This document shows, piece after piece, positions 47,664 to 57,685 of a DNA stretch of 64,000 nucleotides. Numbering within the stretch: position 1 is the first letter of the stretch; each line of letters begins with the position of its first letter. Below the pieces are notes generated by a model, which worked only from the letters and a program-made list of their open reading frames with translations, was not told the origin of the DNA and ran no database searches. Made by a program: the position numbers and the translations under genes. This DNA is from Firmicutes bacterium HGW-Firmicutes-9. Lineage in GTDB: Bacteria > Bacillota > Clostridia > Christensenellales > CAG-138. The DNA is taken from positions 142,556 through 206,555 of the forward strand of contig PGZM01000005.1 in assembly GCA_002841395.1 (NCBI GenBank), written 5' to 3'.

Positions 47664-47930
47664 AAAGACAAAAAGTCTCCTTTCGGTTTATCTGCCGTAA
47701 CAGAACAGTTTTCAGTGATAATAAATAGGTAGGTTGTCCATACAAGCGCTGATGGATCACAAGAACAACGATTCGTGTGAAAAAAGGCGTTCAGAGCCGC
47801 TTCAGCGCACCTCTATTATAGGCGCATGGATAAAGTCTGTCAAAGGCGTGAATAAATACAGGAAAATCGATAAAAGATGACGGATTTAACCCGAAAAATC
47901 GATTTTCAGCTTTCCTAAATAATATTGCTA

Positions 47931-47939
47931 TGTTATAAT
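47931..47939 (+). promoter_or_regulatory. Extended -10 element TGtTATAAT upstream of the hydrogenase operon
   Basis: TG at 47931-47932 and TATAAT at 47934-47939. There is no good -35 element. Confidence 0.45.
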
Positions 47940-47997
47940 TCACCTTGGCTTATACCGGTCTGGACCGGGTTTTTGAATCACGCCGAGGAGGAAGATT

Positions 47998-48492
47998 ATG
48001 GCAAAGCAGAAAACTGTCGTTCCCTTTCGCGGAACGCAGGAGCAGGAAAAACAGCTTTTACAGATCATCGCGGACAACAAGGATGTTCCGGGCGCATTGA
48101 TGCCCGTGCTCCAGCAGGCGCAGGAGCTTTACGGCTATCTGCCCATCGAAGTGCAGACCAAGATTGCAGAAGGTCTTGGCATCTCGATCGAAGAAGTGTA
48201 TCAGGTTGTGACGTTTTACGGGCAGTTCTCGCTCAACCCCACGGGCAAACACCGCGTTGCGGTCTGCCTTGGCACGGCTTGCTACGTCAAGGGAGCGCAG
48301 AACATTCTCGAAGAGCTCGAAAAACAGCTCGGCGTCAAAGCGGGCGGCACCACGCCGGACGGCGTGTTCACGCTGGAAGCCACGCGCTGCCTCGGCTGCT
48401 GCGGCCTTGCCCCGGTCATCGTTGTCGATGAGGACGTCTACGGACGCCTGGTCAACGCGGACATCAAAGGCATCCTCGCGAAATATAACTAA
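47998..48492 (+). CDS. hydC: NuoE-like [2Fe-2S] subunit of the bifurcating [FeFe] hydrogenase (HydC)
   Basis: The pattern VCLGTACYVKG...CLGCCGLAPV. Strong GAGGAGGA RBS. Confidence 0.85.
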   Translation: MAKQKTVVPFRGTQEQEKQLLQIIADNKDVPGALMPVLQQAQELYGYLPIEVQTKIAEGLGISIEEVYQVVTFYGQFSLNPTGKHRVAVCLGTACYVKGAQNILEELEKQLGVKAGGTTPDGVFTLEATRCLGCCGLAPVIVVDEDVYGRLVNADIKGILAKYN

Positions 48493-48551
48493 GCCTTAGG
48501 ACCTTGAGCGCAATCCTGCCTCAAGAAGCCGGAACGAAGGGACGGAGTCGA

Positions 48552-48908
48552 ATGAAAATTCGTGAAATCGCGACGCTGCTCGGTGCGGATGTCCTCTGCG
48601 GAGAGTCACAGCTCGACGAAGAGGTGCAGAGCGCCTGCGGAAGCGACATGATGAGCGACGTGCTGGCCTTTGTCAAGGATCAGGGCGTGCTTGTCACGGG
48701 GCTTGTGAACCCGCAGGTGATTCGTACCGCCATGATGATGGACATGCACTGTGTCGTCTTTGTCCGCAGCAAGCGGCCTACGCCGGAGATGCTGGAACTT
48801 GCCAAGGAGCACCACATCGCGGTTCTTGCAAGCTGCAGCCGGATGTATGAAGCCTGCGGCAAGCTCTACGCGAGCGGCCTGGGCAACGAGGCCTGCGCCA
48901 ATGGCTGA
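48552..48908 (+). CDS. DRTGG-domain protein
   Basis: About 118 aa with the pattern SDMMSDVLAF...VLVTGLVNPQVIRTA...VVFVR typical of DRTGG. ATG at 48552. Confidence 0.7.
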   Translation: MKIREIATLLGADVLCGESQLDEEVQSACGSDMMSDVLAFVKDQGVLVTGLVNPQVIRTAMMMDMHCVVFVRSKRPTPEMLELAKEHHIAVLASCSRMYEACGKLYASGLGNEACANG

Positions 48909-49368
48909 GGCACTTCGGTTTCACTATGAAGTAGACGGCGATAACTTCACCTCCGCGGGTGCGGCCTCCGTCGAAGTCAAGCGAAAGCTCCGGCAGCTCG
49001 GCTTTGACGCGGAGTTGATCCGCAGGGTGTCCATCGCCATGTACGAAGGCGAAATCAACATGGTCGTACATGCGCGCGGCGGCAGCGCCGACGTGTATGT
49101 AGACAAGGATTGCGTCACGATTATCCTTGCAGACCGGGGCCCGGGCATACCCGATATCGACCTCGCGATGCAGGAAGGCTATTCAACCGCTCCCGATAAC
49201 ATCCGCGCGCTGGGCTTTGGCGCTGGCATGGGCCTGCCGAACATGAAGCGCTATACGGATGAAATGAAGATCGAAACCGTGCTCAAACAGGGCACCACCG
49301 TGACCATGAAGGTCTATATCAACCACACGAAACAAACGGAAAAAGGCACATCTGAAGAGGGCAAATAA
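48901..49368 (+). CDS. HATPase_c-type ATP-binding protein (anti-sigma/serine-kinase-like)
   Basis: DRGPGIPD and GFGAGMGLPNMKRY (G1/G2 boxes). Its start overlaps the upstream stop (ATGGCTGA). Confidence 0.75.
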   Translation: MAEALRFHYEVDGDNFTSAGAASVEVKRKLRQLGFDAELIRRVSIAMYEGEINMVVHARGGSADVYVDKDCVTIILADRGPGIPDIDLAMQEGYSTAPDNIRALGFGAGMGLPNMKRYTDEMKIETVLKQGTTVTMKVYINHTKQTEKGTSEEGK

Positions 49369-49506
49369 CGATTATCCCATTTTGCCGCATCCATTCCACA
49401 GGCGCGCGGGAGAAACATGAGAACGGCGCGCCGGAGAATACGCAGGCGGGCAACGGCAACGGAGCCGTAGCACGTCAGAGCCTGCGGAAAGGCGAAGAAC
49501 GCGCGC

Positions 49507-50790
49507 ATGAAGCAATACAAGCATTCGGTTTCGCTCGACCTTGAAAAATGCAAGGGCTGTACCAACTGCCTCAAGCGTTGTCCGACCGAAGCCATCCGCA
49601 TTCGCGACGGCCACGCCGTGATCAATTCTGATGTTTGCATCGACTGCGGCGAGTGTATCCGCCGCTGCCCGTATCAGGCGAAGAAAGCGAACTTCGACCA
49701 CTTTGAGGACATCGACGACAAGAGATACCGCATCGCGCTGCCTGCGCCTTCGTTTTATGGGCAGTTCGTGGATCTGGACGACGTAGACTATGTGCTGCAG
49801 GGGCTACTGGACATCGGCTTTGACGATGTGTTCGAGGTAGCCCGCGCCGCGGAGATCATTACGGAGTATACGCGCCGCTATATGCGCGAAGAGAACATCG
49901 GTTATCCCGTGATCAACTCCGCCTGTCCCGCGGTTGTGCGGCTCATCACGCTGCGCTTTCCCTATCTTTGCGATCACGTCATCCCCATGATGCCACCGAT
50001 CGAGCTGGCGGGAAAGATCGCACGTGAAGAAGCGCTGAAAAAGCACCCGGAGCTCAAGCCGGAGGATGTCGCGGTCGTGTTTATCTCTCCGTGTCCCGCA
50101 AAGGCGAGCTACGTCAAAAACGGCTTCTTAGGCGAGAAGAGCCACGTAGACTATGTTGTCTCCATGAGCGACATCTACTTCAAGCTCATCAGTGTCATGA
50201 AGAAAAACGTAGCCCCAAAGGCCGTGAGCCAGAGCGGCATGATCGGCATGAGCTGGGCGAGCACCGGCGGCGAGGCAAGCGCGCTGTTCAACGATAAGTA
50301 CCTGGCCGCGGACGGCATAGAGAACGTCATCCACGTACTGGACGAAATCGAGACCGGACACTTCCCGATGCTGCAGTTTGTAGAGCTCAACGCGTGCCCC
50401 GGCGGCTGCGTCGGCGGGGTGGCGACGGTGGAAAATCCGTACATCGCGCGCGTACGGCTGCAAGCGCTGAGACGCTATTTGCCGGTATCGCAGAATCGAT
50501 TAGAGAAGGACGATTCAGAGGGCTATCCGGAGGAAATCCTCTTCCCGAAAGACCTCGAATATCGACCGGTTGGCAAGTTTGACGAGGATTTGACCACGGC
50601 GATGCAGAAGATGAGCGAGATCGAGGGTCTCGCGGCCTCTCTGCCCGCGCTGGACTGCGGCTCCTGCGGCGCGCCGACGTGCCGTGCCTTTGCCGAGGAC
50701 GTCGTGCTCGGCGGACGCAGCATCGACGAGTGCATCGTCTACATGCGCGAACGGATCCAGACGCTGGTCAAGTGTCCCGGGGAGGAATAA
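49507..50790 (+). CDS. HydS-like putative sensory [FeFe]-hydrogenase-domain protein with two ferredoxin clusters and a C-terminal Cys motif
   Basis: CKGCTNCLKRCP and CIDCGECIRRCP at the N-terminus. The H-domain motifs are NSAC(140)P, SPC(196)PAK and ELNAC(297)PGGC(301)VGG. The C-terminal motif is C384-x2-C387-x4-C392. Confidence 0.75.
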   Translation: MKQYKHSVSLDLEKCKGCTNCLKRCPTEAIRIRDGHAVINSDVCIDCGECIRRCPYQAKKANFDHFEDIDDKRYRIALPAPSFYGQFVDLDDVDYVLQGLLDIGFDDVFEVARAAEIITEYTRRYMREENIGYPVINSACPAVVRLITLRFPYLCDHVIPMMPPIELAGKIAREEALKKHPELKPEDVAVVFISPCPAKASYVKNGFLGEKSHVDYVVSMSDIYFKLISVMKKNVAPKAVSQSGMIGMSWASTGGEASALFNDKYLAADGIENVIHVLDEIETGHFPMLQFVELNACPGGCVGGVATVENPYIARVRLQALRRYLPVSQNRLEKDDSEGYPEEILFPKDLEYRPVGKFDEDLTTAMQKMSEIEGLAASLPALDCGSCGAPTCRAFAEDVVLGGRSIDECIVYMRERIQTLVKCPGEE

Positions 50791-50793
50791 AGA

Positions 50794-51120
50794 ATGACAG
50801 TGCTCGGCCTGAAAGAAACGCTCAACCTAACCGCGTTTGCCCTGCCGCAAGGTGAGCGGCACGTACGCGGCGGATACGCGGGCGATCTTTTGAGCTGGGT
50901 GATGGGCAAGGCCGAGGCGGACGACGCATGGCTGACCATCATGAGTAACCCGAACATCCTTGCGGTGGCGACACTGACGGACGTGAGCTGCATCATCCTC
51001 TGCGAGGGCGTTGTGCCGGATGCGGGGGTAGCGAACCTAGCCGCCGAGAAAGAGATCAACCTGCTCGGCAGCGAATCTTCCGTCTTCGCGCTCGCGGCGC
51101 AAATAGCTCGCCTGCTATGA
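50794..51120 (+). CDS. DRTGG-domain protein (second copy)
   Basis: 108 aa with the pattern GDLLSWVMG...LTIMSNPNILAVA...IILCEG. GGGGAGGA RBS. Confidence 0.7.
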   Translation: MTVLGLKETLNLTAFALPQGERHVRGGYAGDLLSWVMGKAEADDAWLTIMSNPNILAVATLTDVSCIILCEGVVPDAGVANLAAEKEINLLGSESSVFALAAQIARLL

Positions 51121-51857
51121 GCACGTATCGGTGCGATCTGCACATACATTCCTGCCTCTCGCCCTGTGCGGAGGAGGAGATGACGCCGGGCAACATCGCG
51201 GGTGTGGCGAGGCTCAACGGTCTCGACATTGCCGCGCTGACGGACCACAACACCTGCGGCAACTGCGCTTCGTTCTTTGCCGCTTGTGAGAATTACGGTG
51301 TGGTGCCGGTTGCGGGCATGGAACTGACCACCAGCGAAGATGTGCATCTGTTGTGCCTCTTCAAAACCCTTTCGGATGCAACCGCCTTTTCCGCGGCGGT
51401 CAACGATAAACGCATCAGGATCAAGAACAAGCCGGAAATCTTCGGCAGACAGCTTTTGATCGATCTGGACGATGAACCCTGCGGCGAGGAAGCGTTTCTG
51501 CTCCTCAACGCGACGACGCTCTCGCTGGAAGACGCAGCAAACCTTTGCGCTTCCTTCCGCGGCGCATACATCCCGGCGCATGTCGATCGCGAGTTCAACG
51601 GCATGCTCTCCGTTCTCGGCGGCGTGCCGGAGACGCCGGAGCTGCCGACCGTCGAGGTACGCAATCCCGAAAGCCTGCCGGAGCTCGAGCGCGGGCACCC
51701 GCTGCTCAAGAGAAAGCGCGTGATCGTCTCCTCGGATGCGCATCGCCTCTGGGAGATTGCGGAGAAGGGCTTTCCGATCAACCTGCACTGTGAACGCGGG
51801 GCAAGCGCGCAGAACGTGCGCGACGCGCTGATCGATTATCTGAGCGGGCGGCGCTGA
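51117..51857 (+). CDS. PHP-domain metal-dependent phosphoesterase
   Basis: CDLHIHSCLSPC and ALTDHNT motifs. Its start overlaps the upstream stop (ATGA). Confidence 0.8.
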   Translation: MSTYRCDLHIHSCLSPCAEEEMTPGNIAGVARLNGLDIAALTDHNTCGNCASFFAACENYGVVPVAGMELTTSEDVHLLCLFKTLSDATAFSAAVNDKRIRIKNKPEIFGRQLLIDLDDEPCGEEAFLLLNATTLSLEDAANLCASFRGAYIPAHVDREFNGMLSVLGGVPETPELPTVEVRNPESLPELERGHPLLKRKRVIVSSDAHRLWEIAEKGFPINLHCERGASAQNVRDALIDYLSGRR

Positions 51858-51865
51858 GGTATTAT

Positions 51866-52408
51866 ATGAAAGAACTCTCGCTCAATATCCTCGATATCGC
51901 GCAAAACTCGATCAAAGCGAACGCCGCGCATGTGACCATCCGGCTGACGCAACGGGAGAACTGGCTCACGATCGAGATCGCCGACGACGGCACGGGCATG
52001 AGCCCGGATTTTGCGCAACATGCCGCAAACCCGTTTACCACCACGCGCACGACGAGAAAAGTCGGCATGGGATTGCCGCTGTTTAGGATGGCGGCGGAGC
52101 AGACGGGCGGCAGCTTCTCACTGGTTTCACACCAGGCGCTGCGCGAAAGTGACGCGCATGGAACAACCGTGACGGCAACGTTTGATACCGCGCATGTGGA
52201 CTGCGAGCCGCTGGGCGATATCACGGAGACGATACTAACCCTGATTCAGGGCAACCCCGATCTTTCGCTGACGTATGTCTATCAGACCGAAGCGGGAGAA
52301 CTGCGGCTCAGTACCGATGAAATGCGGGAAATTCTTGGGGAAGATGTTCCGCTGAACAGTCCGGAGGTACTCGCCTGGGCGCGGGAGTTCCTGAACGGAG
52401 AAGAATGA
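51866..52408 (+). CDS. HATPase_c-type ATP-binding protein (second copy)
   Basis: N-box NILDIAQNSIKA, then DDGTGM, then GMGLPLF. Confidence 0.75.
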   Translation: MKELSLNILDIAQNSIKANAAHVTIRLTQRENWLTIEIADDGTGMSPDFAQHAANPFTTTRTTRKVGMGLPLFRMAAEQTGGSFSLVSHQALRESDAHGTTVTATFDTAHVDCEPLGDITETILTLIQGNPDLSLTYVYQTEAGELRLSTDEMREILGEDVPLNSPEVLAWAREFLNGEE

Positions 52409-52541
52409 CCCTGCGGCAAACGATGCCGCCTCAACCGTGTCAAGCATGAGCAGAATTGCTTGTTTTATACACCAACGCGCCAAGCGTGCGGCAGCAGTTA
52501 ATAATTTGGGATCAATCATCAGTGAGGAAGGAACGAAGAAC

Positions 52542-52907
52542 ATGAAATCATTGCAGGAACTGGCAGAAATTCGCGAGAGAAGCAAGAGCAAGGTTGCGCT
52601 CCGTGAAGGGCACAACGACATTCGCATCGTCGTCGGCATGGCGACCTGCGGCATCGCGGCCGGCGCGCGTCCGGTGCTCAGCGCACTCGTAGAAGAGGTA
52701 GAGAAGCAGGGCGTCAGCGAGAGGGCGACCGTTTCGCAGACGGGCTGCATCGGCATCTGCCGTCTTGAGCCTATCGTAGAAGTGTTTGAGTCGGGCAAAG
52801 AGAAGGTCACCTACGTCAAGATGACACCCGAAAAGGCAAAGCAGGTTGTCAGCGAGCACATTAAGGGCGGCAAGCCCGTTTACGAATACACGATCGGTGA
52901 GAAATAA
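52542..52907 (+). CDS. Thioredoxin-like [2Fe-2S] ferredoxin
   Basis: The pattern GMATCGIAAGA...QTGCIGICRLEP. ATG at 52542 with a GAGGAAGG RBS. Confidence 0.8.
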   Translation: MKSLQELAEIRERSKSKVALREGHNDIRIVVGMATCGIAAGARPVLSALVEEVEKQGVSERATVSQTGCIGICRLEPIVEVFESGKEKVTYVKMTPEKAKQVVSEHIKGGKPVYEYTIGEK

Positions 52908-52922
52908 GCGGAGGAGTAACCA

Positions 52923-54716
52923 ATGATTCGTTCACACGTATTAGTCTGCGGCGGCACCGGCTGCACGTCCAGCGGGAGCCCCGCGATTCGCGAGCATCTC
53001 GAAAAAGAGCTTCAGAAACAGGGTCTTGACGAGGAGATCAAGGTCGTCCAGACCGGTTGCTTCGGCCTCTGCGCATTGGGTCCGATCATGATCGTCTACC
53101 CGGAAGGCACGTTCTATAGCCGCGTTACGGAAGATGACGTTACGGAGATCGTCAGCGAGCATCTGCTCAAAGGCCGTCCCGTCGAGCGCCTCGTCTACAA
53201 CCCCAAGACCGAAGAGATGCCCCACGGCGTCACCTCGCTCAACGAAACGCCGTTCTATAAGAGCCAGGAGCGCATTGCGCTGCGCAACTGCGGCGTGATC
53301 AACCCCGAAGAGATCGACGAATACATCGCGCTCGACGGCTATCTCGCGCTTGGCAAAGCACTGACCGAGATGAAACCGCAGGAGGTCATCGACCTGATCA
53401 AAGCCAGCGGCCTGCGCGGTCGCGGCGGCGCGGGTTTCCCGACCGGTACCAAATGGCAGTTTGCCGCCAACAACGCGTCGGACGAGAAATTCGTCATCTG
53501 CAACGCGGACGAGGGCGACCCCGGCGCGTTCATGGATCGTTCCGTGCTCGAAGGCGACCCGCACGCGGTGCTGGAAGCCATGGCGATCGCGGGTTACGCC
53601 ATCGGCGGTACCCACGGCTACATCTATGTCCGTGCGGAGTACCCTATCGCGGTCAAGCGCCTCAAGATCGCAATCGACCAGGCGCGCGAATACGGCCTGC
53701 TCGGCAAAAATATCTTCGGCACCGACTTCAGCTTTGACATCGACATCCGCCTTGGCGCGGGCGCGTTCGTCTGCGGCGAAGAGACGGCGCTGATGACCAG
53801 CATCGAAGGCTTCCGCGGCGAACCGCGCAACAAGCCCCCGTTCCCGGCGGTCAAGGGTCTCTTCGGCAAGCCCACGATCATCAACAACGTCGAAACGTTT
53901 GCCAACATCCCGCAGATCATCGTGAAGGGACCGGAATGGTTCTCCTCGATGGGCACGGAGTGCAGCAAGGGCACCAAGGTGTTCGCGCTCGGCGGTAAGA
54001 TCAACAACACCGGCCTTGTGGAAATTCCGATGGGCACGACGCTTCGCCAGATTCTCTTTGAAATCGGCGGCGGCATCCCCGGCGGCAAAAAGTTCAAGGC
54101 CGCGCAGACCGGCGGTCCTTCGGGCGGCTGCATCCCGGCGGAGCACCTCGACACGCCGATCGACTATGAAAACCTCAAGGCCATCGGCTCGATGATGGGC
54201 AGCGGCGGCTTGATCGTCATGGACGAAGACAACTGCATGGTCGACGTCGCGCGCTTCTTCCTCGAGTTCACGGTGGACGAGAGCTGCGGCAAGTGCACGC
54301 CGTGCCGCATCGGCACACGTCGCCTGCTCGAAATGCTCAACAAGATCACCGAAGGCAACGGCACGCTCGAAGACCTCGACAAGATGGAAGAGCTCTGCCA
54401 CTACATCATGAACAACGCGCTGTGCGGACTGGGTCAGACCGCGCCGAACCCCGTGCTCTCCACGCTGAAGTATTTCAAAGACGAATACATGGCGCACGTG
54501 GTAGACAAGCGCTGCCCGGCAGGCGTTTGCAAGAAACTCCTGCAGTATGTGATCGATCCTGCCAAGTGCACGGGCTGTACGCTCTGCGCGCGCAAGTGCC
54601 CCGTGAGCTGCATCGCCGGTAAGGTGAAGGAGCCGCACGTCATCGATCAGAGCAAGTGCATCAAATGCGGCGCCTGCATGGATAACTGCAAGTTCGGCGC
54701 CATTTCCAAGAAGTAA
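52923..54716 (+). CDS. hydB: NuoF-like NADH/FMN flavoprotein subunit of the bifurcating hydrogenase (HydB)
   Basis: N-terminal 2Fe-2S motif (VCGGTGC...GCFGLC), GRGGAGFPTG, and two C-terminal CxxCxxCxxxC motifs. Confidence 0.9.
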   Translation: MIRSHVLVCGGTGCTSSGSPAIREHLEKELQKQGLDEEIKVVQTGCFGLCALGPIMIVYPEGTFYSRVTEDDVTEIVSEHLLKGRPVERLVYNPKTEEMPHGVTSLNETPFYKSQERIALRNCGVINPEEIDEYIALDGYLALGKALTEMKPQEVIDLIKASGLRGRGGAGFPTGTKWQFAANNASDEKFVICNADEGDPGAFMDRSVLEGDPHAVLEAMAIAGYAIGGTHGYIYVRAEYPIAVKRLKIAIDQAREYGLLGKNIFGTDFSFDIDIRLGAGAFVCGEETALMTSIEGFRGEPRNKPPFPAVKGLFGKPTIINNVETFANIPQIIVKGPEWFSSMGTECSKGTKVFALGGKINNTGLVEIPMGTTLRQILFEIGGGIPGGKKFKAAQTGGPSGGCIPAEHLDTPIDYENLKAIGSMMGSGGLIVMDEDNCMVDVARFFLEFTVDESCGKCTPCRIGTRRLLEMLNKITEGNGTLEDLDKMEELCHYIMNNALCGLGQTAPNPVLSTLKYFKDEYMAHVVDKRCPAGVCKKLLQYVIDPAKCTGCTLCARKCPVSCIAGKVKEPHVIDQSKCIKCGACMDNCKFGAISKK

Positions 54717-54728
54717 GGAGGCAGGAAC

Positions 54729-56471
54729 ATGGATCAGGTAACAGTCAAAATCAACGGGATCGAAACAAAGGTTCCCGCCGAATCTACCATTCTCGAAGCT
54801 GCTCACATTGCGGGTATCCGTATCCCGACGCTGTGCTACCTTCGTGAGATCAACGCCATCGCGGCGTGCCGTATCTGCCTTGTGCAGGCGACGGGCGTGC
54901 GCGGTCACGCGGCTGCCTGCGTTCAGAAGGTCGCCGACGGCATGGAGATTCAAACCAACACGCCCGGCCTGCGCGACGCGAGAAAGACCACGCTGGAGCT
55001 CATTTTGAGCAACCACCGCATGGACTGCCTCAGCTGCGATCGCAGCCCGGACTGCGAACTGCAGTCTCTCGCGCATGAGTATGGCGTAGACCAGTATAAG
55101 TACATGGGCAGCGAGAACCTCAAACCCCAGTATGAGAGAAGCGCGCCGCACCTCGTCCGCGACAACAGCAAGTGCATCCTGTGCCGCCGCTGCGTTGCGG
55201 TCTGTGATGCAAACCAGCATTGCGCGGTCATCGGCACCAACGAGCGCGGTTTTGACACGCATGTCGGCAGCGCGTTCGATATGCCGCTGAATGAGACCAG
55301 CTGCATCAACTGCGGTCAGTGCATCTCGGTCTGCCCGACGGGCGCGCTCTGCGAGCGTGACGACACGCATCTCGTCTGGGATGCGCTTGCCGACAAGACC
55401 AAGCATGTGATCGTTGCGCCCGCGCCTTCCGTGCGCGTACAGCTCGGCGAATGCTTCGGTATGCCGATCGGCACCAACGTGCAGGGCAAGCTCGTCACCG
55501 CGCTTCGCCACCTCGGCTTTGAGAAGGTGTTCGACGTAGACTTTGCAGCCGACGTCACCATCATGGAAGAGGGCACGGAGCTCTTAAACCGCCTGCAAAA
55601 CGGCGGCAAGCTCCCGCTGATCACGTCCTGCTCGCCGGGTTGGATCAAGTTCTGCGAATATTACTTCCCGGATATGGTCGAGAATCTTAGTAGCTGCAAG
55701 AGCCCGCAGCAGATGTTTGGCGCGCTTGTGAAAACCTATTACGCCGAGAAGATGGGCATCGATCCCAAGGATCTCTACGTCGTCTCCATCATGCCCTGCA
55801 CCGCGAAGAAATTCGAGTGCACGCGTGATGACCAGAGTGCGGCGGGCGTGCCGGATGTCGATATTTCCCTCACCACGCGCGAGCTTGCGAATATGATCAA
55901 GCGCTCGGGCATCCGCTTTGCGGAGCTGCCGGACGAAGAGTTCGATCCGATGCTGGGCGTTGCCTCTGGTGCTGCACATATCTTCGGCGCAACCGGCGGC
56001 GTTATGGAAGCGGCGCTTCGCACCGTTGCCGAAATCGTTACCGGCAAACCGCTGGATAACGTGGACTTCACGGCCGTTCGCGGCGTCGAAGGCTGCAAAG
56101 AGGCGGAATACGACCTCGCGGGCACCAAGGTGCGCGTTGCGGTCACCAGCGGTACCGAAAACGCCTACCAGCTCCTCGAGATGGTCAGAAAAGGCGAGGC
56201 GGACTATCATTTCATCGAAGTCATGGCCTGCCCGGGCGGCTGTGTCAACGGCGGCGGACAGCCCCATCAGCCGGGCGAAGTGCGTAACTTCATCGACCTG
56301 CGCGCCGAGCGTGCCAAGGGTCTCTACGGCCAGGACAAAGAGATGAAGCTCCGCAAGAGCCACGAGAATCCCTTCGTCAAGGAACTGTATGATACCTACC
56401 TTGAGAAGCCGGGTTCGCACAAAGCGCACCACATCCTGCACACGACCTACGTCAAGCGCAAGGTGTATTGA
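54729..56471 (+). CDS. hydA: [FeFe] hydrogenase catalytic subunit, group-A3-type (HydA)
   Basis: N-terminal 2Fe-2S and 4Fe-4S domains. The H-cluster motifs are TSCSPGW, MPCTAKKFE and EVMACPGGCVNGGGQP. Confidence 0.9.
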   Translation: MDQVTVKINGIETKVPAESTILEAAHIAGIRIPTLCYLREINAIAACRICLVQATGVRGHAAACVQKVADGMEIQTNTPGLRDARKTTLELILSNHRMDCLSCDRSPDCELQSLAHEYGVDQYKYMGSENLKPQYERSAPHLVRDNSKCILCRRCVAVCDANQHCAVIGTNERGFDTHVGSAFDMPLNETSCINCGQCISVCPTGALCERDDTHLVWDALADKTKHVIVAPAPSVRVQLGECFGMPIGTNVQGKLVTALRHLGFEKVFDVDFAADVTIMEEGTELLNRLQNGGKLPLITSCSPGWIKFCEYYFPDMVENLSSCKSPQQMFGALVKTYYAEKMGIDPKDLYVVSIMPCTAKKFECTRDDQSAAGVPDVDISLTTRELANMIKRSGIRFAELPDEEFDPMLGVASGAAHIFGATGGVMEAALRTVAEIVTGKPLDNVDFTAVRGVEGCKEAEYDLAGTKVRVAVTSGTENAYQLLEMVRKGEADYHFIEVMACPGGCVNGGGQPHQPGEVRNFIDLRAERAKGLYGQDKEMKLRKSHENPFVKELYDTYLEKPGSHKAHHILHTTYVKRKVY

Positions 56472-56491: not shown

Positions 56492-56523
56492 GCTCCCGCA
56501 ACTTGTGTGCGGGAGCTTTTTTG
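56492..56523 (+). terminator. Intrinsic terminator after hydA
   Basis: GCTCCCGCA-N7-TGCGGGAGC followed by T6. Confidence 0.7.
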
Positions 56524-56641
56524 TTCAGCGGGATAGGATTTCTGTTATATTTATGATATATCTGAAAAAAGATTCCAGATTTTTGAAATTCTTATGCAAT
56601 AAATGCCCTTCTTTTCCGTCAATATAGCATAAGGGGAAACG

Positions 56642-57190
56642 ATGGCGATGGATCAAAGCGAAAACAGCAAGTGGTATGCGTTCTTCACCCGCGACGGGGA
56701 GAAGCTCGTTCACTTTGCCAGAAACCACGCACGTCGCATCAGCGAAATGGACGCGGAGGATATCGTCGCGGACGTGATGCTGCAACTCGTGAGCCGCCTC
56801 GAGACCAACGGCCCCGTGGAGAACATCGCAGCCTATGCCTACCGCGCCGTGCGAAACAAGATCGCAGACTACGAGCGGAAGCGCGCGAAGGAGACGAGCC
56901 TCGACGGCATGGCGGACGCGGACGGGGAGCTGCCGCTTCTGAGCATGCTGGCCGCGGAAAACGAGGAGCCGTTTGCGCAGGAAGAACGGGTGGAACGCAT
57001 GCACCGCCTGACGGACGCCATCGGCAAACTGGAACCCAGACAGCGCGCGATCCTGATCGCGACCGAACTTAAGGGGAAATCCTTCCGCGAACTTGCCGAG
57101 GAGTGGAATGAACCCATCGGTACGCTGCTCTCACGAAAGAGCCGCGCTGTCAAGGCCCTGCGGCAAATGTTGGAAGAACCTGAAATATAG
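56642..57190 (+). CDS. ECF-type RNA polymerase sigma factor
   Basis: Region 2 (DIVADVMLQL...YAYRAVRNKIADY) and region 4 (LEPRQRAILIATELKGKSFRELAE...GTLLSRKSRAVKALR). Confidence 0.85.
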   Translation: MAMDQSENSKWYAFFTRDGEKLVHFARNHARRISEMDAEDIVADVMLQLVSRLETNGPVENIAAYAYRAVRNKIADYERKRAKETSLDGMADADGELPLLSMLAAENEEPFAQEERVERMHRLTDAIGKLEPRQRAILIATELKGKSFRELAEEWNEPIGTLLSRKSRAVKALRQMLEEPEI

Positions 57191-57238
57191 TTACGCCTCA
57201 ATGCAAAACAAAAAGACAAGAAAAATGGGAGAATCAAT

Positions 57239-57685
57239 ATGAGCAAAATCAAGAAACAATGGGACACCGTTCCCAACTGGGCAAAGTATACGCTATACAC
57301 GGTGCTCGGCATCGCGGGCGCATTCCTGCTGGGGTTGCTGTTCGGCAACCTGATCATGTGGCTCTGGAACTGGCTGATGCCGAGTCTCTTCGGACTTCGC
57401 ACCATCGGCTTCTGGGAAGGCCTCGGCATCTTCCTGCTGGCAAAGCTGATTTTCGGCTTCGGCGGCTCGAGCAGCTCCGGTGAAGGGGATAAAAAGCACC
57501 ATCACGGCAAGCGGCATTATCACCGTCGCAGCGGCGAGGGCGAGAAGCATGACTGGAAAGACTGGGAGTATTATGACGACTGGTGGGAAGCGGACGGCAA
57601 GACCGCATTCCATGCCTATGCTGAGAACATGAAAAAGGAATCGGCAGACAAGACCGAAGAGAAATCCGAAGAAACGACGAAATAA
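57239..57685 (+). CDS. Membrane protein (3 TM helices) with a His/Arg-rich and Trp/Asp-rich tail; candidate sigma partner
   Basis: It follows the sigma gene after 48 nt. It has no zf-HC2 motif. The tail reads KKHHHGKRHYHRR...DWKDWEYYDDWWEADGK. Confidence 0.6.
   Translation: MSKIKKQWDTVPNWAKYTLYTVLGIAGAFLLGLLFGNLIMWLWNWLMPSLFGLRTIGFWEGLGIFLLAKLIFGFGGSSSSGEGDKKHHHGKRHYHRRSGEGEKHDWKDWEYYDDWWEADGKTAFHAYAENMKKESADKTEEKSEETTK

Follow-up and report, generated by a model that had tools for sequence, protein, structure and literature searches.

The 64,000-nucleotide (nt) window analysed here, from contig PGZM01000005.1 of Firmicutes bacterium HGW-Firmicutes-9, contains ten co-oriented genes that form one operon (positions 47998-56471, + strand). 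Six of these genes, designated g1 to g6 (48552-52408), sit between hydC and hydD-hydB-hydA. [quoted passage not shown] The ten genes, with product lengths in amino acids (aa), are:

hydC, 47998-48492, + strand: NuoE-like [2Fe-2S] subunit of a bifurcating hydrogenase (Pfam 2Fe-2S_thioredx 6.6e-51; NCBIfam NuoE/HoxE-type matches).
g1, 48552-48908, + strand: single-domain protein of 118 aa (Pfam DRTGG 2.8e-8).
g2, 48901-49368, + strand: protein of 155 aa (Pfam HATPase_c_2 1e-9).
g3, 49507-50790, + strand: protein of 427 aa (Pfam Fer4 twice, Fe_hyd_lg_C 2.2e-32, PF04060 FeS 4.4e-13).
g4, 50794-51120, + strand: protein of 108 aa (Pfam DRTGG 1e-4, under Pfam's cut-off).
g5, 51117-51857, + strand: protein of 246 aa (Pfam PHP 4.2e-8).
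g6, 51866-52408, + strand: protein of 180 aa (Pfam HATPase_c 4.6e-16).
hydD-like, 52542-52907, + strand: thioredoxin-fold 2Fe-2S-type protein of 121 aa (Pfam 2Fe-2S_thioredx 1.1e-5).
hydB, 52923-54716, + strand: NuoF-like FMN/NADH subunit (Pfam Complex1_51K 2.7e-46, NADH_4Fe-4S 2.2e-35; NCBIfam nuoF 6.3e-151).
hydA, 54729-56471, + strand: A. woodii HydA1-type catalytic [FeFe]-hydrogenase subunit (891 bits to NCBIfam NF040763, for which the cut-off is 765).

All six genes were found where the initial annotation had placed them on the + strand, and Pfam and NCBIfam bore out the flanks it had named, namely the NuoE-like hydC, a thioredoxin-like 2Fe-2S protein, the NuoF-like hydB and hydA. Its description of the six genes as tightly packed holds for four of the five internal junctions, with an 8-nt overlap between g1 and g2 (ATGGCTGA), a 3-nt gap between g3 and g4, an ATGA overlap between g4 and g5 and an 8-nt gap between g5 and g6. 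It fails for g2 and g3, which are separated by 138 nt rather than 3-8 nt, with an in-frame stop 13 codons 5' of the sole possible g3 start (ATG). The start of the hydD-like gene was picked to fit the lengths of its homologues (121-123 aa). Profile searches of the kind that the annotation had proposed matched all the expected families, Fe_hyd_lg_C, DRTGG, HATPase_c-type and PHP, with the sub-threshold DRTGG match of g4 backed by profile-profile alignment. The domains of the flanking subunits are those of an electron-bifurcating HydABC: NF040763, a model named 'NADH-dependent [FeFe] hydrogenase', in HydA; Complex1_51K, together with an N-terminal 2Fe-2S and a C-terminal 2x[4Fe-4S] domain, in HydB; and 2Fe-2S_thioredx in HydC. 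The claim that the six proteins have no recognisable output domain also stands, as Pfam and NCBIfam returned no PAS, DHp, receiver or DNA-binding domain in any of g1-g6, nor any HisKA, HPt or Response_reg match of the kind that marks a two-component system.

The g3 protein combines an N-terminal 2x[4Fe-4S] domain (Fer4, residues 6-64), an H-domain and a C-terminal domain with a Cx2Cx4Cx16C motif (C384, C387, C392 and C409; PF04060 at residues 379-410). It keeps the four H-cluster cysteines (300, 355, 499 and 503 in CpI) in the segments SACP, SPCPAK and NACPGGC, which align with the HydA motifs and whose cysteines are retained in all related loci. It has Ala at the position of CpI C299 and Ser at that of M353, and the GGGQP end of motif L3 is missing (...GGCVGGVA, SPC and ELNAC are found instead). 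The motifs that had been read in g3, NSAC-P, SPC-PAK, NAC-PGG-C, an Ala for the relay Cys, the lack of GGGQP and the C-terminal four-Cys motif, are all correct. Against the NCBIfam group A model g3 scores 98.6 bits, with a cut-off of 405.95, which leaves it outside the catalytic group A; likewise, it has no PAS match and, ending at residue 427, is too short for group C (M2f). More than 8000 g3 homologues display the same architecture.

The prototype of group D (M2e) is TamHydS of Thermoanaerobacter mathranii, with which g3 shares about 44% identity over 337 aa (tblastn, E 5e-82); the comparison sequence was the coding sequence in the paper's supplement, a text with frameshifts from optical character recognition. 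The two proteins have motifs L1, L2 and L3 and the C-terminal cluster motif in common, as well as the domain order 2x[4Fe-4S], H-domain, Cx2Cx4Cx16C without a PAS domain, a residue other than Cys occupying CpI position 299, and Ser at position 353. Their genes are similarly placed, as that for TamHydS also lies 5' of bifurcating HydABC genes and adjoins a HATPase gene. They differ in that g3 belongs to a Christensenellaceae-like lineage and has Asn, where TamHydS has Leu, at the M497 position. Furthermore, the window genes lie between hydC and the g6 gene, whereas the TamHydS locus lies 5' of hydC, and an AraC-type gene flanks HydS in T. mathranii but is not found near the window genes. Based on the sharing of every defining motif, g3 is by sequence a group D (M2e) HydS-type [FeFe]-hydrogenase and an orthologue of TamHydS, in keeping with its earlier description as a PAS-less HydS-type sensory protein.

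TamHydS incorporates an H-cluster and turns over slowly with a high affinity for H2. The group A proton pathway is missing from it, H2 does not reduce its C-terminal cluster, and a change in its secondary structure when it reacts with H2 has been reported. It is reversibly active, its N-terminal clusters forming a normal electron-transfer path, and the 2026 TamHydS paper calls it 'evidently critical' to identify its interaction partners.

The sensing role of HydS-type proteins is a hypothesis in the field. The group C (M2f) HydS proteins, such as TmHydS of Thermotoga maritima, HydS of Ruminococcus albus and HfsB of Thermoanaerobacterium, resemble g3 in that their H-domain has no proton-relay Cys, in their C-terminal four-Cys cluster, in their proposed function in H2 sensing, and in having genes that adjoin hydrogenase genes with a phosphatase gene alongside. 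Group C HydS systems also have a Ser/Thr kinase partner. However, they have a PAS domain and are partnered by a Ser/Thr phosphatase, whereas g3 is PAS-less and is accompanied by a PHP-type phosphoesterase and, additionally, by DRTGG proteins. The regulatory [NiFe]-hydrogenase HoxBC of Cupriavidus necator is comparable as a low-activity hydrogenase that serves as an H2 sensor and is encoded with the enzymes it controls. Its metal centre is unrelated, and it signals through a classical histidine kinase and response regulator, HoxJ and HoxA, neither of which is encoded in the window operon.

The sensor class is thus already named and partly characterized, and its link to bifurcating hydrogenases and 'kinases' has been in print since at least 2012. 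Carere et al. (2012) described group D M2e 'monomeric sensory' hydrogenases encoded five genes 5' of trimeric bifurcating hydrogenases, with protein kinases close by, in Caldicellulosiruptor, Caldanaerobacter, Thermoanaerobacter, Clostridium thermocellum and Clostridium phytofermentans. The window locus is a further member of this group D HydS/HydABC gene cluster and is not new as a kind. Our literature searches found no paper joining DRTGG with hydrogenases, and none in which the PHP or kinase genes are given a role or a signalling mechanism is described, in agreement with the initial annotation, which had regarded the biochemical logic of the DRTGG/HATPase/PHP set as uncharacterised.

We then examined the contextual information from related genomes. 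A degenerate-pattern scan with one genome per species showed a g3 relative in at least 540 genomes; the best 80 loci (60-93% identity), of which the closest come from Christensenellaceae-type metagenome-assembled genomes, were used for comparison. In tblastn searches with twelve window proteins, the same genes were found on the same strand in every one of these 80 loci as far as the contigs reach, with two placements of hydC. The majority, including the window, follow the order hydC-g1-g2-g3-g4-g5-g6-hydD-hydB-hydA (arrangement A), and six (L025, L029, L042, L058, L065 and L069) follow g1-g2-g3-g4-g5-hydC-g6-hydD-hydB-hydA (arrangement B). A 4-nt overlap is the commonest spacing at g1/g2, g3/g4, g4/g5 and g5/g6, and with the recurrent order it means that the gene block is not a product of chance. 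The neighbourhood survey suggested at the outset has therefore confirmed that g1-g6 are co-conserved with the hyd genes, and the six are always in one operon with NuoE/NuoF genes; the proposed six-gene module is, however, more aptly divided into a five-gene cassette, g1-g5, and g6. Clustering of the open reading frames within 5 kb on each side showed no regulator conserved beside the cluster in the 63 loci with an upstream flank or the 47 with a downstream one, and the flanking families are clade-specific, reaching 17 loci at most.

The companions of the sensor include two small proteins of the DRTGG family and a kinase-like protein. The g1 protein has the invariant motifs GSDMMSDVLA and LxTGLxNxQ, and g4 has DLLSWVM and TIMSN; both hold invariant D-[LM]-[LM]-S-x-V-[LM] and T-x-x-x-N segments, and hhalign identifies g4 as a paralogue of g1 (probability 98.9%, E 3.9e-17). 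Profile searches of the Protein Data Bank (PDB) with g1 and g4 returned weak matches only, to DRTGG-containing entries such as the CBS-pyrophosphatase 3l2b and the Pfam DRTGG protein AF1212. A full-library search with g1 yielded 1434 cluster representatives at E<=1e-3, nearly all of them stand-alone proteins of about 115-125 aa. Two apparent fusions of DRTGG, to a peptidase M3 domain and to ArgJ (P0156 and P0160), were set aside as chimeric assemblies because their DRTGG part is truncated. Across the family g1 and g2 most commonly overlap by 4 or 8 nt, and g4 is joined to g3 and g5 mostly by 4-nt overlaps.

The N, G1 and G2 boxes of g2 are invariant across the related loci, and its best NCBIfam model is spIIAB, the anti-sigma F factor SpoIIAB (1.5e-15, under the equivalog cut-off). 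In the protein P0215 (275 aa) a DRTGG domain is followed by HATPase_c_2 in one chain, and a search with it gave at least 120 clusters of full-length fusions of 249-305 aa, mostly 264-278, at 44-100% identity (P0215, P0271-P0389). The AlphaFold2 (AF2) model of the fusion is of good quality (predicted local distance difference test, pLDDT, 86.8; predicted template modelling score, pTM, 0.77), with the linker alone disordered. Its kinase half superposes on SpoIIAB with a template modelling (TM) score of 0.82-0.84 and a root-mean-square deviation of 2.2-2.4 A, and also matches RsbW and UsfX, while the N-terminal half matches AF1212. On this evidence, g2 is a SpoIIAB/RsbW-type protein with the complete Ser-kinase/anti-sigma fold and predicted kinase activity, and, given the DRTGG-kinase fusion in at least 120 clusters, we propose that g1 and g2 constitute one functional unit.

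The set can be compared with the SpoIIAB-SpoIIAA-SpoIIE and RsbW-RsbV-RsbU systems. These share with the window a small kinase of the same fold (in g2, a GHKL Ser-kinase with an anti-sigma fold), a kinase gene that overlaps the gene for a small partner, and a dedicated phosphoesterase in the same operon. They differ in that the window partners are DRTGG rather than STAS proteins, with no STAS match in any product of the operon; in that the phosphoesterase is of the PHP type rather than PP2C; in the absence of a sigma factor gene from the operon and from the conserved cluster; and in having a hydrogenase-like protein as the input.

The fusion also led to more distant versions of the cassette. 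In all six fusion contexts examined the DRTGG-kinase gene lies directly 5' of the HydS-type gene, and the distant HydS proteins keep the cluster cysteines and have a non-Cys residue at position 299. The loci are organized as follows:

L085, L086 and L089 (Thermoanaerobacterales-type): rex-fusion-HydS-DRTGG-PHP-hydC-g6-hydD-hydB-hydA.
L081, L082, L087 and L088: Hdr-like genes-fusion-HydS-DRTGG-PHP-g6-NuoE-HydD-NuoF-585-aa HydA-like protein, then FlpD and the NiFe small and large subunits.
L083, 9611-19098: DRTGG (g4 type)-fusion-HydS-NuoE-NuoF-molybdopterin enzyme-Nfn-like pair, without a PHP gene or g6.

In the first of these the stop of rex overlaps the start of the fusion gene (rex at 3224-3853 in L085, 9372-10001 in L086 and 8372-9001 in L089). 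The second places an [FeFe]-type HydS cassette within a cluster of the NiFe-HydABCSL type, with Hdr-like genes directly 5'; Pfam detects no H-domain in the HydA-like protein of L088, and the L087 contig stops short of the NiFe large subunit. The third is a minimal module whose gene content suggests control of a formate-dehydrogenase-type complex. As the cassette also accompanies NiFe and molybdopterin complexes, its constant neighbour is the NuoE/NuoF module and not the [FeFe] HydA, and finding an [FeFe]-type protein next to a NiFe enzyme points to a function in regulation rather than in catalysis or the delivery of an H-cluster.

The same contexts bear on the idea that HydS docks on HydBC as a second hydrogenase of low rate and high affinity, with the kinase and phosphoesterase choosing between the two heads. 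The reversible activity of TamHydS with its normal electron-transfer path is compatible with such a part, as is the placement of HydS next to NuoE/NuoF genes whatever the catalytic partner. On the other hand, the very low rates and missing proton pathway of TamHydS speak against it, and a subunit of this kind is absent from HydABC(D) and NiFe-HydABCSL as purified. We regard this as the most improbable of the explanations considered.

The phosphoesterase g5 has an invariant HxH[ST]CLSPC motif, which is kept in homologues down to 32-34% identity. Since all PHP metal ligands are invariant (the invariant residues are H9, H11, C13, C17, D43, H44, E69, H77, H155, D207 and H209), the metal site is predicted to be intact. 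Where PHP proteins usually have an HxHTxxSDG or S-x-H segment, this subfamily has an invariant C-x3-C (HSCLSPC), whose two cysteines could ligate metal or act as a redox-sensitive pair adjoining the active site. Among solved structures, g5 is closest to TM0559, EndoQ, RNase AM (7ug9) and the bisphosphate phosphatase Cv1693, with matches at the level of the PHP superfamily (E 1e-5 to 1e-8); PolC PHP domains were also returned by this profile search of the PDB. The same search returned no CpsB/YwqE entry at E<=1, and an assignment of g5 as a protein phosphatase of that type was rejected.

Among these relatives EndoQ, RNase AM and Cv1693, along with a hint from NCBIfam, raise the alternative that what g5 hydrolyses is a small nucleotide, whether pAp, a dinucleotide or an oligoribonucleotide. 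In that case the DRTGG proteins would bind a nucleotide or metabolite, as in CBS-pyrophosphatases and Pta, with HydS tuning the level of that ligand instead of the state of a phosphoprotein. The location of DRTGG domains in the regulatory regions of CBS-pyrophosphatases and a weak similarity to the ligand-sensing PucR N-domain agree with this proposal. It is difficult to reconcile, however, with the invariable presence of a complete SpoIIAB-type kinase that can be fused to DRTGG, with the absence of a cyclase or nucleotide synthase from the cluster, and with the minimal module of L083, which does without PHP; moreover, the g5 matches on which it draws do not go beyond the superfamily level. 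We accordingly consider it quite unlikely.

The second HATPase protein, g6, begins at the N box and has a small C-terminal alpha/beta part. Its AF2 model (pLDDT 86.6, pTM 0.84, from a shallow alignment) was compared with solved structures by Foldseek: MutL, PMS2 and TopoVI-B rank highest (TM 0.49-0.62 over 160-197 columns), the ATPase domains of GyrB and Hsp90 are also matched, and the CA domains of histidine kinases reach a TM score of about 0.4 over some 105 columns. Thus, g6 is modelled as a stand-alone GHKL protein, for which ATP binding is predicted from the fold, and it resembles GHL-type ATPases more closely than kinases. Its place in the operon and the published descriptions equate g6 with HydE of A. 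woodii, with the 'hypothetical protein Tte0891' of the Caldanaerobacter subterraneus hyd operon and with the 'HisK' of the NiFe-HydABCSL operon of Acetomicrobium mobile; Cthe_0339, annotated 'histidine kinase', is equated with g6 on the same grounds. HydE and 'HisK' are absent from the respective purified enzymes. Like g6, HydE, Tte0891 and 'HisK' are stand-alone histidine-kinase-like ATP-binding proteins encoded in hyd operons, between hydC and hydD where the order is given. The published descriptions of these operons differ in not including the g1-g5 cassette, whereas in the window g6 lies directly 3' of the PHP gene.

The adjoining hydD-like protein retains, in its translation, three of the four expected [2Fe-2S] cysteines (TCGIAAG and CIGIC), and A. 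woodii HydD, in agreement with this, has no apparent cofactor site. The best PDB match of the window HydA is A. woodii HydA1 (7q4v, E 3.5e-209). Its L1 motif reads TSCSPGW instead of TSCCPGW, the Ser aligning with the CpI cluster ligand C300, and a Cys occurs in LSSCKSPQ where CpI has Ala321. As the same is seen in 7q4v and in every one of the 53 HydA L1 motifs that were counted across the window and related loci, it is a feature of the subtype and not an error.

For the g6 homologues, the authors of the A. woodii and A. mobile studies proposed 'assembly or signalling' and 'maturation and/or regulation', respectively. One might accordingly suppose that the ATP-binding proteins, possibly with HydS as an H-cluster carrier, assemble or repair HydABC and take no part in signalling, and the MutL/Hsp90-like GHL fold of g6 and its absence from purified enzymes are what would be expected of such an aid. 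Yet a SpoIIAB-type kinase together with a phosphoesterase is a signature of signalling, and the cassette also occurs with NiFe-type complexes in which the HydA-like subunit lacks an H-domain, and H-cluster delivery therefore cannot be its common role. An assembly or maturation function is thus very unlikely.

We also examined the non-coding parts of the operon and the genes that follow it for a possible link to transcription. The features observed are:

47862-47875 and 47893-47907, + strand: two AAATCGAT boxes read from the sequence 5' of the promoter, a candidate operator.
47931-47939, + strand: extended -10 element TGtTATAAT, read from the sequence as the promoter of the ten-gene operon.
47955-47978, + strand: leader hairpin CCGGT-CTGG-ACCGG followed by GTTTTTGAAT, a terminator-like match about 20 nt 5' of the hydC ribosome-binding site.
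49369-49506, + strand: g2-g3 spacer of 138 nt with a GC hairpin, GGCGCGC (49401-49407) and GCGCGCC (49426-49432).
56492-56525, + strand: strong intrinsic terminator, GCTCCCGCA...TGCGGGAGC followed by TTTTTTGTT, which closes the operon.

The box at 47893-47907 includes a perfect 14-bp palindrome, GAAAATCGATTTTC. Box 1 is kept in the window and in L001-L017, the clade of its closest relatives, and box 2 in most of the latter. The extended -10 element, which a scan for two-hexamer promoters did not return, is near-invariant across the same set. The window and L001-L010 share a leader hairpin at the same place, and L007 shows a compensatory change in it (CCAGCC/GGCTGG); RNAalifold gave no result for it, as the loops do not align. 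The boxes and the hairpin upstream of hydC may represent an operator and a 5' stabiliser or attenuator of the hyd operon. The g2-g3 spacer measures 69-291 nt in 15 of the 16 loci of L001-L017 in which both genes were called and about 9-30 nt in most others. Its hairpin is conserved in the L001-L017 clade with one compensatory pair and weak RNAalifold support. Rfam returned nothing credible in the two long spacers or the leader. Beyond the terminator lie genes for an ECF-type sigma factor and a small membrane protein (56642-57685), which are shared with two close relatives only and stand outside the conserved cluster. The sigma factor (56642-57190) was considered and rejected as the output of the cassette, as the strong terminator separates it from hydA, it is of the ECF type and it recurs in only 2 related loci, in one of them non-adjacently.

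These observations are pertinent to the main rival explanation, namely that the cassette has a transcriptional output through a regulator encoded elsewhere, or close by in certain lineages only, with g2 sequestering a sigma factor or a repressor (candidates being Rex, an AraC-type protein and a group-3 sigma). Under this proposal, the levels of hyd and other fermentation genes would follow H2 pressure, as has been proposed for the group C HydS of Ruminococcus albus. The complete anti-sigma-factor kinase fold of g2, the rex-first operons of L085, L086 and L089, the AraC regulator adjoining the TamHydS gene and the boxes conserved 5' of the operon promoter in the window clade all favour it. In the literature, there is a Rex site 5' of the five-gene hyd operon of Caldicellulosiruptor bescii, and group C sensors are thought to regulate transcription. 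Set against these are the lack of any regulator conserved beside the cluster in the 63 upstream and 47 downstream flanks, the absence of a Rex operator near the operon or 5' of hydC in the window (two consensus searches allowing 3 mismatches), and the position of the downstream ECF sigma past the terminator. SpoIIAB-type proteins, moreover, target group-3 rather than ECF sigmas. A transcriptional output is thus somewhat unlikely on balance, with the nucleotide, assembly and alternative-head proposals less likely still.

Taking together the sensor, its companions and their genomic contexts, we propose, with a probability of roughly 40%, an H2-controlled, ATP-dependent phospho- or partner switch among the DRTGG proteins that acts on the neighbouring bifurcating enzyme. 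In this mechanism, H2 would alter the conformation of HydS (g3) and thereby change how it holds a DRTGG protein or the DRTGG-kinase unit. A phospho- or partner switch, its components replacing the usual parts of a SpoIIAB system, would read this H2-dependent state. The g2 kinase would work with g1 as a single unit, g4 would be the likely phospho-acceptor or switching partner of the kinase, and the PHP enzyme g5 would reset the switch. We favour g4 as the partner because it is a g1 paralogue with the same D-[LM]-[LM]-S, is coupled by overlaps to g3 and g5, and is retained in L083. The output would be protein-protein control of the NuoE/NuoF-type enzyme encoded in cis, probably via g6 and/or HydD and not via a DNA-binding domain. 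An output in cis is suggested by the constant association of the cassette with NuoE/NuoF in the 80 loci, by its occurrence in FeFe, NiFe and molybdopterin contexts without a conserved flanking regulator, and by the presence of g6 homologues in hyd operons yet outside the purified enzymes. The proposal builds on the identities of the parts, their strict co-conservation, the g1-g2 fusion and the binding of an H-cluster by the orthologue of g3. From these we infer who phosphorylates whom, what the PHP enzyme acts on and which target receives the output.

Several points weigh against this switch. The roles given in it to all five companions of g3 are themselves inferred, and transcriptional autoregulation would account just as well for a sensor gene beside its target operon. 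The overlap of rex with the first cassette gene in Thermoanaerobacterales-type loci and the AraC-type regulator flanking HydS in T. mathranii mean that some lineages do have a DNA-binding output nearby. The proteins of solved structure closest to g5 act on nucleotides or nucleic acids and not on phosphoproteins, and g6 resembles ATPases more than kinases in the Foldseek comparison. DRTGG and STAS are different folds in the established fold classifications, and a DRTGG domain fused to a kinase fits a regulatory domain as well as it does a substrate. We further posit, as a more speculative and rather doubtful extension, that the cassette represents a new module of the partner-switching type, with DRTGG in place of STAS, a Cys-containing PHP enzyme in place of PP2C and a kinase of the SpoIIAB fold, driven by an [FeFe] H2 sensor. 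Its output would be direct ATP-dependent gating of bifurcating NuoEF complexes with FeFe, NiFe or molybdopterin heads, and not gene expression.

To the published association of group D HydS with bifurcating hydrogenases, the present analysis adds the division of the accessory set into a five-gene cassette and a HydE-type ATPase, the natural fusion of g1 and g2, a minimal three-protein version, the reach of the cassette to NiFe and molybdopterin NuoEF complexes and the lack of a conserved linked regulator. In guts, rumens and digesters, it is electron-bifurcating hydrogenases that set the balance of H2 and redox in fermenting bacteria. The window locus and its relatives offer a short, fixed list of candidate HydS partners, along with the DRTGG-kinase fusion and the three-protein version, from which pairwise binding and phosphorylation experiments can be directly designed. 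If the output is post-translational control of bifurcation, this would be a new mode of regulating energy conservation and, if true, would provide the first function for single-domain DRTGG proteins.

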